DNA from: a plasmid
Reading direction: 5' to 3' (one strand)
Assembly: GCF_054482525.1 (NCBI RefSeq)
Contig: NZ_JBTHVG010000006.1
Length of the DNA stretch: 36,373 nucleotides
A program made the position numbers. This document shows, piece by piece, positions 15,001-21,000 of the stretch. Each line of letters starts with the position of its first letter. Position 1 is the stretch's first letter.

Positions 15001-18000
15001 TCTCGATCCAAAAAGGGAGTGTTTTAATATCACCAGTCTTATCAGGAAGGTGATTTTAGGTCATGAGGTTTATAAATTTGATCCCTTTAGTTCGGTAACG
15101 CACCGCTTTAACCCTTTGTATTATGTCAGCATGGGAACGAGTGAAGGTTTTAATCAGCTTGAAAATCTTTCGTTGATTATTTACCCCTATAAGACAGATG
15201 GTGCGGATGCTGGTAGCTATCTTAATAAGACGGCGGGTGGTGTTTTTAAATCTTATGCTGTCGCTTTATGGTTTATGATTAAGAATGATAAGGCTGGACT
15301 AAAAACGCTTGATATTGAGCCTGTCTTCTCAATGTCTAAAATTAATCAGCTTTTTGAGCGTGCAGAACCCGAACATCTTCTTTCATTCATGAATGATATT
15401 CGTTCAGAATTAAGGGGGAAAGACAAAACGCTTGCTGATATTGGTGTCGCTGGCCTTAAGGCATTCATTGAGATGGAGGATAAAACAAAAGCACAACTCA
15501 AAAGCAACTTTCTTAATGGATTATCACCGTTTGCTAACCCCAATGTGGCAAATGCTACTGATGGAAATGATTTTGATTTGCGGCAGGTGCGGAAAAAGCG
15601 GATGACAATTTATTTCTGTATTTCTGGTGATAATGCCAGGTTGGCTGAAAAAATAACAAATATTTTCTTTCAGCTTGCTATACAGGTGAATCTTGAAAAG
15701 ATGCCAACGGATGATCCGGAAATAAAGCATGACTGCCTTTTTCTACTGGATGAATTCCCGTCAATTGGTGCTGTAGATTACATCAAGAGTAAATCTGGTC
15801 TCATTGCTGGTTACAAGCTGAAATTGTTGATTGTTTACCAGGTCGGCTCTCAGCTTGAGGAAATCTACAGTTATGCAGGCAGTAAAACATTACTGGCAAG
15901 TGCACCCTGCAAAATTGTTTATTCCGCTTCTGATGTTAAAGATGCGCGGGAGTTATCAGAAGCGATGGGGACACGAACAGTAACTATCGGTTCGAAAAGC
16001 AAAAGTCGTAGTCGTGGAGGAACATCGAGATCTGAATCAGAAAGCCTTATTGAGCGTCCACTGGTAACAACAAATGAACTACTTACACTGAAATTTAGTG
16101 AAGAAATCCTGGCAATGAAGGGAGAAAACCCGATTCGTTGTGAAAAGGCATTCTACTATCTCAATGAGTATTTCTTTGGTGATTTTGTGAGGGTTGCTCC
16201 GGAACTTGCAAACATTTTCCCCAGGAAGAAAGGAAAGCTGGTTATGCCTCCACAGAAAGTATTTGAAAATGAAATCGTCGCAAAAGGGTATCTGGCAGTA
16301 AAAGATGTTCCTGATCTCAATAAAGCGGCATAAAGGAGAACATGATGAAGAAGTTAGTGTTTTTATTGATTTCCATTCTTGCTGGTTGTTCATCACCGCC
16401 AGAGCCAACACCCGTGCAGTTTGAAAAGGCAAATGAAATGATCAATCCCTCATTGCCATATGTCCCCGATTTTCACGGTGTCATAAAGTCAGACGTTAGC
16501 GGTAAAGGATGGGTTTATGAGATCACTTCCTTATCCGGAGTACAGGCCAGAACGCCGACGTTTTATTACGCTCTGGCTCATGCGGACAGGATTGTAGTGA
16601 CAACACATGATGCTGGGCTGTGGTTTCGAATCAGAGATCTGTTGAAGATGGAAGGGGCAACAGCAGTCGTTGAATGGCGAAACGAGAAAAGTTTTTTACC
16701 TGAACAGGGAAAAATAGTTTTCATTAAAGCACAAAACGAGGTGAAAAATGACTGGAAAAAATAGAGTGGTTTTACCAGCCTTGCTGGCGTTAGGATTAAT
16801 ATCAACAAATGCTAATGCATCTGACCCTTGCGCTTCGGTACTTTGCTTATATGGAAAAGCAGTCGGGCAAGGTGGAGGGAGTGAATGCAGAAGTGCTGAA
16901 AAGGATTTTTTTAATATTCTGAAAAAGAAAAAAGGAAGCATTCGCTGGAGCAAAACTTTTGATGCCCGTAAAGCATTTCTGAATCAGTGTTCAACGGCTG
17001 ATCCGGCTGCTATCTCAAAAATTATGAGTAAGTTCGGTAAGATTAAGGGGTAGATGATATGAAAAAAAAAGAAAAGATTGATTTTCTTAATGCAATAAAA
17101 GCAGGGCACTCTGGCTTTATAGCTGGTAATCCTGCTCATGCATTGGATGATAAGACTATGAACGCCATCATTCATAACTACGAGGCAACGATTGCGCCCG
17201 GTAAAGCAGGTAACTGCAAAGAAACTCCTCTCACAAAGTATTGTTCGAGGACTATACCAGAGCGTATTTCAGTTGAAGAAATCAATGAGGTTAAAATTTA
17301 TCCAGAGTTATTCTGAACTGAAATAAAGGCAAACGCCGCAGATTCCGGATTTTAATCCGGGATTTGCGGGGTTGAACAACCGAAGGGCGTTAGTTTCCTC
17401 GTTATCCATGAGGTGTATATGAAAGCAAGAAGTGTGAGAGTTGCCGGAATTGAAATTATCGATAGTGTTAAAACGGTCGCTTCTGTTTTTACTGAAACCT
17501 TACTGTTTATGGTCTGGTTTTCGGCAATTGTCTATGGGCTTTATCGTGTTGTTATCGTTTTATGGGATGATCCTTTAAAGCCGCAATCGCTCATGGAATT
17601 TCTTAATTTCATAGTTGAGTTGTATAGCTATGTACTTCCTTCGTTGGCTGTTATCGCAGTGGCTTTAATCGCCGTTTTATCCATTTGTAAAATACTCTCA
17701 GCAATATGGGAGGGAAGAAAACAATGAGACATTTTCTTAAGGCTCTTTCCTTTGTTGTTTCCCTGTTACCAGCTACATTGTGTGCGGCTGAAATCCAGGG
17801 GAAAGTTATTCGCGTTCTCGATGGCGACACCATAGAAGTTAAAACACTACCCGCAAAAATTGTTGTGTATGAAGTTCCGATTCGAGTCCGATTGATAAAT
17901 ATCGATGCCCCTGAAAAGAAACAACCTTTTGGACGCTGGTCAACAAATCAACTTAAAACCCTGCTCGCAGGCCAATCCGTTACCGTCTCTTATACGCAAA

Positions 18001-21000
18001 CAGACCGCTACGGACGCATTATCGGTCGTGTGTTCACGACGAACGGCACAGATGCCAGCCGCTTTATGGTTCAGTCTGGTGCTGCATGGGTATATGAACG
18101 TTACAACGCGGATGAGTCATTACCGGCTCTGCAACGGGAAGCGCAGGAACAAAAACGAGGTTTATGGGCTGACAGTAATCCGGTTCCACCGTGGGAATGG
18201 CGACATAAACAGAACTGACGCGCGTTGCTTGTCCAACCCCTCCACTACCTTAAATAAATTTCAGGCAGTGTCACGGTTTTAAATATACATGGTGCGCTTA
18301 TGGGTAAATTAACTCTGGTAGAGCAGGCTTTACGGCTTCACAAAGAATATTACGGTGAAGATAATTTTGGAACTGTCGTAAAGGATTATGATTATTATCC
18401 TAAAGTTGCTGAGATTTTTATAAACAGAAAGAACCGTAAAATTTACTCTAATCTGGATATTGAACCTGTTGCCTCAACTGTTGTTCATACGGGAAGTAGT
18501 CCAGTGATGGCTAAAGCAGGACGAATTAAAAAACTTATGTTTAAAGATGGTTCTGGTGCATACAGGATTCATCTTGGTCAAAATGAAGTGGTTCATATTA
18601 TTCGCTTTATTCTTAACTCTAAAGTCAGGATGGAGTACGCCGTTGGTACTACTAAAAGTATGTCAATGCTCCATAATCTTTGCGAAGCAGGACGAGCTAA
18701 ATTAAACCGTTCCTTACCACGTAAAGGTATCTGGAAACTTGGGTACTATGATGGTGTTTATTATCACGGTAAGGCAAGAAAGGAGGAAATTGAAAATGCT
18801 ATGCGTTTCTCAGTTCATCCAAAATTTGACGAGCTGGAAAACGACTTTAATCAGTTCTTTTCTGATATTGATTTCTATACCCGGTATGGTCAGTCAGGTA
18901 TGCGTAAAGTGCTCTTTACTGGCCCCCCAGGAACAGGCAAGACAACTATCGCAAAAGCTTTGGGGGCAAAGTATCAGGATAAGTATGTTTTTGTCTATGC
19001 CGACGATTACTTTAAAGATGTTTGCTACGCCGCTGCTCAGAAGAAAATACCCGTCATTATTATAGCTGAAGAGGTTGATGAACTTTATCGGGCTGATGCC
19101 GGAACGTTAAGTTTTCTTGATGGAGCTGATACACCGCGAAATGTCGCAGGAACATATGTGATTTTTTCAACAAACTATCCAAAACGCATCGACCCACGTA
19201 TTAGAAAACGTCCAGGTCGAATTGACAGGATAATCTCTGTAGGTGCTTTCAGAACCAAAGCCGCTGCCGCTTGCGCCAAAATGTACTTACCAGAAGATGT
19301 AGAAATTGACCTTAAAGAGCTTGGCGCAGTGCTGGACAGAACGACTCCGGCTGAAATCAAGGAAATTATTAATATCGCAATCGGAATGATTCGCGGAACC
19401 AAAAATGAATTATCAGTGGATGTAATAAAAAATGCTCGTGCCTTTTTGAAAGGAACCCTCGATCTGAGCGTTCAGGAAGCAGATGAAGATATAGAGGAAA
19501 GGGAAGAACTTTATAAAAAGAACGGGGCACAACCTGACTATTTAAGTTACCTGGAGGATTAACACATGCAATATGCATTGTTTGATGGATTTGAACGAAA
19601 GTTTTTGCTGGATGCTCTTGAGTTCGGTGTTCTGAAGGACTGGAAAGAAAATCCGGTAAAAGAGCTTCCTGATATTGATGAATCTGCTCACCCCTTCCAT
19701 GTCTGTTATGGTGGATATTTATTAAATCCTGGCGTTTCAGATTCTGATATTAGCAGAAAAATAAAAGACCAGACAGGATTCTGGCTGGCAGCTGTTGATG
19801 ACACCCGCATGGATTGTCATTCAATAGCTTATTATGATATTCACACACTCCCTCTGATTTCGTGTGGACGTCAAAAGATAGTTCCTTTTGCCGCGTTAAT
19901 AAAAGCTGACAGATGTATCATTTCGAAAATTGCATCATATTCTGGTTTTGCAGTAACGGCTTTTTTAAGGATTAAAGAGTGGGATATTGCAACCAACATA
20001 CTTAATCGCGAGGGAATTTTTGCTTTTAATGGCTGTGAACGCAGGTTCAGACAGCCTGTAGGTGAAGATAACTGGAAACAGGCAATATCAGAAGAACGAG
20101 CTATTCGCTGTGCAAACAGACTAATTCAGTGTAAAGGATAACAAAATGAAACTTTTTATCGCAGAAAAACCCGCAGTAGCAAATGATATTGTTAAGGCTC
20201 TTGGGGGCAATTTCACCCGTCATGATGGCTGGTTTGAAAGTGATAATGCTATTGTGACTAATTGCTTTGGTCATATTATCGAATCACAGCCGCCGGAAAA
20301 CTATAATCCTGAATACAAAGCCTGGAAGGTTGAAACGCTTCCTTTACGTCTTTATCCCGTGAAGTATCAGCCTGTTGAAAGTGCAGCAAAACAGGTTAAA
20401 ACGATTCTCGAACTTATCAGACGTGGAGACGTGACTGAAATTGTTCACGCTGGCGACCCTGATGAAGAAGGTCAGCTACTTGTTGATGAAGTTCTGGAAT
20501 ATGCGGGGAACACAAAACCCGTTAAGCGTGTTCTGATTAACGATAACACGCTTCCGGCAGTGAAAAAGGCACTGGCAAACCTGAAAGATAATCGTGACTT
20601 CAGAGGGCTTTACCTTAAGGCGCTGGCGCGTTCAGTTGCTGATGCCGTCTATGGCTTCTCCATGACGCGTGCTTACACCATTCCTGCAAAAGCCAGAGGA
20701 TATCAGGGCGTTCTGTCTGTCGGGCGCGTCCAGACTCCCGTTCTTGGCCTGATTGTGAATCGTACCCGTGCTAACCAGAACCATAAATCCAGTTTTTACT
20801 ACACCATGACCGGACTCTTTCAGCGTGGTGCTGATGTTATCAGGGCGAACTGGAAGCCAGGGGAATTTGCTCCGCTGACAGACCGTAAATTACTTGATAA
20901 AGCGTGGGCAGACGGAACGGCAGCATCCCTTGCAGGAAAACCGGCTACAGTTGAAGCGGCAGCAACTGATGATAAAAAAACGGCTGCGCCGTTGCCGTTT

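Follow-up and report, generated by a model that had tools for sequence, protein, structure and literature searches.

This report concerns a stretch of plasmid DNA of 36,373 nucleotides (hereafter the window; NCBI RefSeq assembly GCF_054482525.1, contig NZ_JBTHVG010000006.1) and, within it, the genes immediately upstream of topB, which encodes the plasmid topoisomerase III: a staphylococcal-type nuclease, a 420-amino-acid (aa) ATPase and a 191-aa protein. The window is an IncX4 mcr-1 (colistin-resistance) plasmid; positions 17600-20200 are 100% identical to the Klebsiella pneumoniae plasmid pKP4823_mcr (IncX4, MOBP, MPF_T, mcr-1 carrier). The genes do not make up one module; the nuclease unit is inherited separately from the ATPase, and the 191-aa gene separately from both. 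The interpretation that we favour, tentatively and just short of calling it probable, is that three separately inherited accessory units lie between the type IV secretion system (T4SS) genes and topB-hha-hns: an exported nuclease, an ATPase of the Bcs1/YjoB kind and a companion of TopB. The open reading frames (ORFs) described in a first-pass annotation of the same DNA are all present on the + strand, at the positions given below (ORF call).

Separate inheritance is seen most directly in the plasmid records. PLSDB holds about 2,150 records that carry either the ATPase gene (1036 records) or the 191-aa gene (1203 records), and both occur together in about 85. In plasmids of the IncX3 group the order is membrane ORF-nuclease-ATPase, the very next gene is topB, whose product is 41% identical to the one in the window, and the 191-aa gene is absent; IncX6 plasmids have the order ATPase-191-aa gene-topB-hha-hns, with the same spacing, and the nuclease is absent. 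The ATPase is 96% (IncX3) and 93% (IncX6) identical to that of the window, whereas the adjacent TopB is 41% and 63% identical, respectively, which implies different histories of the two genes. The coupling of the ATPase to the 191-aa ORF, claimed in the first-pass annotation, thus stands for IncX4 variants and IncX6 (3-nt spacing) but does not extend to PLSDB as a whole, where the two genes are mostly apart.

The breakpoints between related plasmids, as located by BLAST, fall at gene borders. The 33.3-kb epidemic IncX4 plasmids (pCFSA231, pHNSHP49) lack window positions 17039-19411 (2.4 kb), a segment that covers the nuclease and 88% of the ATPase gene. What is left of the latter is its final 151 nt, ahead of the 191-aa gene and topB, and this epidemic mcr-1 lineage looks like a deletion derivative. 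The remnant of the ATPase 3' end is unannotated in both plasmids (locus L015, 4830-5154), where it gives a 67-aa tblastn match of 79% identity, the last 151 nt being alignable as DNA. Plasmid PN25 keeps the nuclease, and a 134-aa ORF replaces window positions 18220-19565. The IncI2 plasmids carry a nuclease remnant, a 134-aa ORF, a 109-aa ORF and DUF6012, and then the 191-aa gene and topB; in a Pantoea plasmid, ORFs of 245 and 235 aa occupy the place of the ATPase (locus L028, 1784-3192).

The interval from the nuclease stop to the start of the 191-aa gene (18220-19565) is a slot for exchangeable cargo. Its alternative cargo includes a Cys-rich acidic 134-aa ORF (locus L016, 4635-5039) and a 109-aa ORF with DUF6012 (locus L017, 5170-6112). 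A search of PADLOC and NCBIfam with the 134-aa ORF, the 109-aa ORF, DUF6012 and the 104-aa membrane protein described below gave nothing. The IncI2 nuclease remnant (locus L017, 3971-4420) is unannotated and 86% identical; its first 14 codons are missing, and with them the start of the signal peptide. Nucleotide identity between IncI2 and IncX4 is about 87-92% across the 191-aa gene and topB, which points to exchange between both plasmid groups.

The nuclease (164 aa, 17724-18218, + strand; RefSeq start 17724, alternative ATG at 17706) is named "thermonuclease family protein" in RefSeq. It matches the Pfam family SNase (PF00565) with an expect value (E) of 1e-25, and in the alignment with the Staphylococcus aureus nuclease the equivalents of D21, R35, D40, E43 and R87 are all kept. 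From the RefSeq start its N-terminus is MRHFLKALSFVVSLLPATLCAA|E, which in the sequence reads as a standard Sec signal peptide with the lipobox absent. The signal peptide and the staphylococcal-nuclease motifs noted in the first-pass annotation were therefore borne out. Upstream lies a small membrane protein of 104 aa (17413-17727, + strand; ORF call), which has two strongly hydrophobic segments (Kyte-Doolittle 19-residue maximum 2.74) and for which NCBIfam, PADLOC and PHROGs contain no family. Its stop and the nuclease start overlap (ATGA), and the nuclease is translationally coupled to it; this coupling sets the plasmid protein apart from the staphylococcal nuclease family, with which it shares the SNase domain, the catalytic residues and the signal peptide. 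The pair is inherited together in IncX3, IncX4 and PN25. The nuclease is under purifying selection, with a ratio of nonsynonymous to synonymous substitution rates (dN/dS) of 0.08-0.25, and the value for the membrane ORF is relaxed (0.39).

We presume that this first unit, a small membrane protein and a Sec-exported Ca2+-type staphylococcal nuclease, would work in the periplasm or extracellularly. Some conjugative plasmids carry exported nucleases as well, pKM101 Nuc (of a different fold family) being an example. The signal peptide is confined to the nuclease, while the ATPase contains no hydrophobic segment; as the nuclease is exported and the ATPase cytoplasmic, the two cannot act together. 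The view that nuclease, ATPase and partner form a single module, which could be drawn from the first-pass annotation, has to be abandoned on this ground and on that of the separate distributions.

The ATPase (420 aa, 18300-19562, + strand; ORF call) matches the Pfam family AAA (PF00004) over residues 204-315 with E of 7e-13. The conservation of its motifs was followed in 44 homologues of 25-88% identity. The Walker A sequence GPPGTGKT occupies residues 208-215, with G208 and P210-K214 invariant; the sensor-1 residue N292 and the arginines R304 and R307 of RPGRIDR (304-310) are invariant in 44/44, so the canonical features listed in the first-pass annotation are in place. The Walker B sequence is IIIAEE, with the form hhhhE[E/D] in the family and not the classic hhhhDE: E257 is invariant, and position 258 is E in 38/44 and D in 6/44. 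A glutamate as the first Walker B acid has been reported for YjoB and Bcs1 in the YjoB paper. The D2 domain of Cdc48/p97 and the proteasomal AAA ATPases share with the plasmid protein the Walker A motif, the sensor-1 Asn and the two arginine fingers, but differ from it in pore loops 1 and 2. When the family profile is compared with Cdc48 (D1, D2), 8 residues are deleted at pore loop 1 and 12-15 residues at pore loop 2, and the residual 4-residue loop contains no conserved pore-loop aromatic across the 44 homologues. Judged by its sequence, the protein is a classic-AAA ATPase that would be devoid of both substrate-threading pore loops.

The AlphaFold model of the ATPase has a mean predicted local distance difference test score (pLDDT) of 87.8 overall and of about 80-94 in the N-terminal domain (approximately residues 1-175, 18300-18824, + strand), a basic alpha/beta cap; the AAA domain, the helical lid and an acidic C-terminal tail follow (18825-19562, + strand). 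In a Foldseek search against the PDB, YjoB and full-length Bcs1 make up the top 15 matches (E of 3e-17 to 1e-15, about 400 columns). The Bcs1 AAA domain alone gives E of 3e-12, which is 1e4-1e5 worse than the full-length matches, and p97, FtsH and the proteasomal subunits rank below Bcs1 and YjoB. Residues 1-197 of the model follow the order helix, strand, helix, five to six strands, helix, hairpin and two helices, then Walker A, and this order agrees with the published topology of YjoB. On the Foldseek ranking and the topology of the model, the N-terminal domain is likely to be of the Bcs1/YjoB type. The first-pass annotation had called this domain unrecognised, which holds for Pfam but not for Foldseek, by which the N-terminal domain of Bcs1/YjoB would be its best match.

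The best structural match (E of 3e-17) is Bacillus subtilis YjoB (PDB 7W42/7W46), a soluble AAA+ chaperone with an internal chamber. Both proteins have about 420 aa and, according to the model, would share the succession of an alpha/beta N-terminal domain of 160-175 aa, a hairpin with two helices and one classic-clade AAA domain; in both, the first Walker B acid is Glu, the protein is soluble and the membrane helix is absent. They differ in sequence (18% identity) and in Walker B (ED in YjoB, EE in the plasmid ATPase); YjoB is encoded by a chromosomal stress-regulon gene of Bacillales, while the ATPase family is confined to conjugative elements of Proteobacteria. The full-length matches to mitochondrial Bcs1 (PDB 6SH3, 6UKS, 8T14), a heptamer that translocates the Rieske protein in its folded form, have E of 5e-17 to 1e-15, and the model suggests the same arrangement of an N-terminal Bcs1-type domain and a single AAA domain; unlike Bcs1, the plasmid ATPase has neither the N-terminal membrane helix nor a significant Pfam match of the N-terminal domain, and the identity is 15-18%. 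No transmembrane segment was found in the ATPase (19-residue hydropathy maximum 1.01).

The net charge of the N-terminal domain is +13, and it lies between +7 and +17 (median +13) in 44/44 homologues; outside this domain the protein is mostly acidic, with a median net charge of -3. YjoB and Bcs1 use the internal chamber in handling folded proteins, and the chamber of YjoB is strongly negative according to the YjoB paper, in contrast to the strongly positive N-terminal domain of the plasmid ATPase. Such a conserved basic cap would suit a polyanionic client, either DNA or an acidic protein. Residues 393-420 (19476-19562) form an acidic, low-confidence C-terminal tail, EADEDIEEREELYKKNGAQPDYLSYLED, with G409 invariant across the family; the tail could dock on the basic N-terminal domain or on a partner. 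No other gene of the block is as constrained as the ATPase, whose dN/dS between IncX3 and IncX4 is 0.02 (dS 0.78, dN 0.017), and 0.016 for the N-terminal domain; the nuclease, by comparison, has 0.15.

The ATPase family includes 298 relatives, many of them full-length at 40-55% identity, and the 1036 PLSDB records mentioned above are almost all IncX3. Among 50,697 phage records no homologue of the ATPase or of the 191-aa gene was found. We read nine distinct neighbourhoods of ATPase homologues, all of them in conjugative or related mobile elements. The gene stands immediately before topB, or before the 191-aa gene and topB, in IncX3, IncX4 and IncX6 plasmids; in an integrative and conjugative element (ICE) of Gilliamella, of the PAPI-1/ICEclc type, it starts 2 nt past topB; in a Pseudomonas ICE it is accompanied by AcaB, DUF3158 and SSB, with TopB at 3 kb. 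ArdC and ParB adjoin the homologue in two ICEs. Topoisomerase IA, ArdC, a methyltransferase and UvrD are near it in a large element, an N6/N4 methylase and a PAPS reductase in a Burkholderia element, and UvrD in one and SNF2 in the other of two further elements. Counted over the nine lineages, the neighbours are ArdC (3), UvrD (3), ParB (2), SSB (2), orphan methylases (2) and SNF2 (1). The ATPase gene stands alone as an accessory of conjugative elements and recurs in neighbourhoods of DNA processing and establishment, most often near topoisomerase IA.

The 191-aa protein (19566-20141, + strand; ORF call) belongs to an uncharacterised family, and Pfam, NCBIfam, PADLOC and PHROGs gave no match to it. 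When 1.84 billion representatives were searched with a profile, 263 clusters came up, mostly of stand-alone proteins of 175-210 aa, in which Q2, E19 and R148 are invariant and Y48, G49, W170 and R178 nearly so. None of 78 members matched Pfam (0/78), and a sequence-profile search of the PDB with the family gave nothing; with distant and fused members, PHROGs gave nothing, except that the N-terminal extension of one fusion matched a zinc-ribbon "DNA binding protein". The model of the protein is confident (pLDDT 95.2; predicted template-modelling score, pTM, 0.92) and has no solved relative; its matches in AFDB50 are only uncharacterised proteins of Proteobacteria and Firmicutes. Many GenBank and UniProt entries label the protein "DNA topoisomerase III", a name apparently taken over by mistake from the neighbour gene.

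The 191-aa gene has a constant neighbour in topB, and the two proteins diverge together, from 99% down to 27% identity of TopB. The 191-aa gene is directly upstream of topB in the epidemic IncX4 plasmid pCFSA231 (191-aa protein 93%, TopB 99% identity), in IncI2 (95% and 89%), in IncX6 (71% and 63%), in the Pantoea plasmid (65% and 44%) and in an unrelated VirB-type plasmid (35% and 27%); the genes are 390 nt apart in a Morganella contig (67% and 50%) and 2 kb apart in a Bacillus cereus plasmid (35% and 29%). The gap between them is 4 nt in the window, IncI2 and Pantoea and 3 nt in IncX6. The dN/dS is 0.07-0.10 for the 191-aa gene and 0.09 for topB. Accessory subunits of topoisomerase III of the RMI1 type offer an analogy, and an analogy only, in that a small protein is genetically tied to topoisomerase III; an RMI1-type OB fold contacting the topoisomerase gate was not found in the 191-aa protein. 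A scan of genome contigs for related loci with a shallow alignment gave 4 loci only, two of them probable contamination. The IncX4-type 191-aa gene was met, with 93% protein identity, in a contig of a Lachnospiraceae metagenome-assembled genome (L026; topB 97%) and in a 524-bp Halomonas contig (L029), and its presence in these assemblies of unrelated taxa most likely reflects mis-binning or contamination.

None of the nuclease, the ATPase and the 191-aa protein is needed for mating. The genes have no match among the NCBIfam transfer families and no homology to VirB, VirD4 or relaxosome components, and the 33.3-kb IncX4 plasmids without the nuclease and most of the ATPase are typed as conjugative; we agree with the first-pass annotation that neither the ATPase nor the 191-aa protein is a part of the T4SS. 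Transposon mutagenesis of pHNSHP23 has named 18 transfer genes, namely, pilX genes, taxA, taxB, taxC, tsxA and four coding sequences of unknown function, one of which is pixR, adjoining taxC. From their numbering, these four coding sequences would lie outside the region considered here; the gene layout without the ATPase was seen on the sibling plasmid pHNSHP49. Plasmids without the nuclease and most of the ATPase conjugate, and the transposon mutagenesis, made on a plasmid of the 33.3-kb series, did not flag the region. A deletion study in IncX3 reported effects of at most 12-fold for several hypothetical genes, whose numbers could not be mapped to the ATPase.

Gene content, motifs, distributions, selection and fold similarity were computed directly, and from them we infer the oligomeric state, the client and any contact with TopB. 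In the interpretation that we favour, the second unit would be a soluble Bcs1/YjoB-like AAA+ ATPase with a single AAA domain, which has lost its pore loops and bears a strongly basic N-terminal cap. It may assemble into a six- or seven-membered ring around a positively charged chamber and spend ATP on binding, holding, releasing or remodelling its target, either a protein-DNA complex or an acidic client in the folded state; it would not thread or unfold a polypeptide. Its role would belong to the DNA processing and establishment of conjugative elements, most often around topoisomerase III. The third unit, the 191-aa protein of a new family, would be a translationally coupled companion of the plasmid TopB, most likely an accessory or specificity factor acting on single-stranded DNA intermediates.

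Several observations weigh against this interpretation. Topoisomerase IA is found within 6 kb of the ATPase in only 4/9 lineages, and no topoisomerase is near the 191-aa family in 4 of about 10 lineages examined. The closest sequence match of the AAA domain is the D2 domain of Cdc48 (E of 1.5e-36 with the family profile). Residues 1-200 of the ATPase have no significant Pfam match, BCS1_N or other (BCS1_N is absent among the 25 matches listed of 36 with E up to 10), the Bcs1/YjoB assignment was drawn from the Foldseek ranking and the topology, and the whole-chain TM-score is only 0.44, as the orientations of the domains differ. By analogy with other IncX plasmids, with oriT upstream of taxA, the genes would probably enter the recipient in the middle of the transfer, outside the leading region. 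The papers searched on the nuclease, AAA and topoisomerase genes of IncX4, on Bcs1 with conjugative plasmids and on anti-defence in leading regions gave nothing on these genes and no functional data for any of the three. Finally, the ATPase and the 191-aa gene are adjacent with an identical 3-nt spacing in IncX4 variants and IncX6, and a functional link between them within these plasmids is possible.

This adjacency may be taken further, and the two proteins considered an obligate two-gene module of a motor and its adaptor or effector. A Shine-Dalgarno sequence lies inside the 3' end of the ATPase gene, and the arrangement persists in IncX6 though its 191-aa protein is only 71% identical. We consider such a module very unlikely, since about 950 IncX3 records have the ATPase right before topB and no 191-aa gene, and about 1100 IncX4 and IncI2 records have the 191-aa gene and no ATPase. 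Besides, profile-profile alignment of the 191-aa family with the genes next to distant ATPase homologues shows no relation (hhalign probability <1%), the distant 191-aa homologues have no ATPase nearby, and the rates of divergence are very different (93-96% against 71% identity). A broader proposal joins the ATPase, the 191-aa protein and TopB into a topoisomerase III machine specific to conjugative elements, which would resolve single-stranded or interlinked DNA during transfer and establishment. A chambered DNA-binding AAA ring of the Bcs1 type would load, position or recycle TopB, and the small subunit with a novel fold would serve as its specificity factor, in a loose analogy to motor-Top3-RMI1 assemblies. 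We regard this as decidedly improbable, although it would, if true, be the first DNA-directed job of any Bcs1-like AAA protein.

Alternatively, the ATPase may be an anti-defence or establishment factor that, in the new host, dismantles or sequesters a restriction, SOS or nucleoid-silencing complex which would stop the incoming element, and that has no specific tie to TopB; we hold this to be rather unlikely. The neighbourhoods of its homologues (ardC, ssb, parB, methylases, topoisomerase IA) would fit such a role, which was also suggested in the first-pass annotation: ArdC adjoins the ATPase in three lineages, and orphan methylases, ParB and SSB in others. The restriction of the ATPase to conjugative elements, with phages lacking it, agrees with this role, as does the strong constraint on a gene dispensable for laboratory matings. 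However, the ATPase would be outside the probable leading region of the window plasmid, matches no known anti-defence family, and is directly beside topB in IncX3, IncX4, IncX6 and the Gilliamella ICE. The suggestion of a defence system against phages or rival plasmids, made of the nuclease and the ATPase, we find highly improbable. Pairing of a nuclease with an ATPase is common among defence systems, the slot upstream of the 191-aa gene resembles a hotspot in its interchangeable cargo, and the PADLOC candidate model SNc+LTD matches the nuclease over the SNase domain (E of 4e-12); yet the PADLOC matches to the ATPase are at the level of the P-loop only (about 40 residues, E >1e-6), the alternative cargo genes have no PADLOC match, and the two proteins work in different compartments. 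Each of the two genes is also met without the other (only the ATPase in IncX6, only the nuclease in PN25), and the ATPase homologues are found among ardC, ssb, parB, topB and methylase genes, outside defence islands. The least credible proposal, extremely doubtful in our opinion, is a conventional threading unfoldase that unfolds the relaxase or other proteins for passage through the T4SS. The classic-clade motifs, the sequence proximity to Cdc48 D2 and the proteasomal ATPases and the position of the gene at the end of the transfer block would agree with it, but both pore loops are deleted, the conserved aromatic is absent in the 44 homologues, and plasmids without the ATPase gene conjugate efficiently.

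The + strand order in the window is taxA-taxC-pixR-pilX genes-taxB-cag12-like-trbM/kikA, two small ORFs, nuclease, ATPase, 191-aa ORF, topB, hha and hns. The type IA topoisomerase gene topB (20146-22299, + strand; RefSeq annotation, ORF call) is followed by hha (22296-22502, + strand), whose start overlaps the topB stop, and by hns (22520-22984, + strand), which begins 17 nt after hha. The order topB-hha(-hns) is retained in IncX6 and partly in IncI2, which places the 191-aa gene at the head of a conserved topB-hha-hns string. In a scan of 16300-23200 for promoters and terminators, sites were no more numerous than in shuffled sequence, and no terminator came up on the + strand. An IS91-family transposase (30347-31546; NCBIfam E of 3e-92) lies inside a GC-rich stretch (0.56) and probably accounts for the extra length of the window over the 34,685-bp pKP4823_mcr; that the window is a wrap-around of pKP4823_mcr was tested and ruled out.

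These genes are already annotated but uncharacterised. We believe that the following is new: the assignment of the ATPase to the Bcs1/YjoB type with a conserved basic cap, the finding that its family is very strongly constrained and confined to conjugative elements, and the association of the 191-aa protein with TopB, the mechanism being our proposal. About a thousand sequenced IncX3 plasmids carry the ATPase, and IncX3 includes the main worldwide vehicle of blaNDM-5. The natural deletion in the epidemic mcr-1 IncX4 plasmids shows that at least one highly successful lineage can spread without the nuclease and the ATPase. Placing the ATPase with Bcs1 and YjoB shifts the sensible tests from unfolding to client and DNA binding, ring structure and establishment, and the 191-aa family offers a testable partner for the plasmid topoisomerase III.

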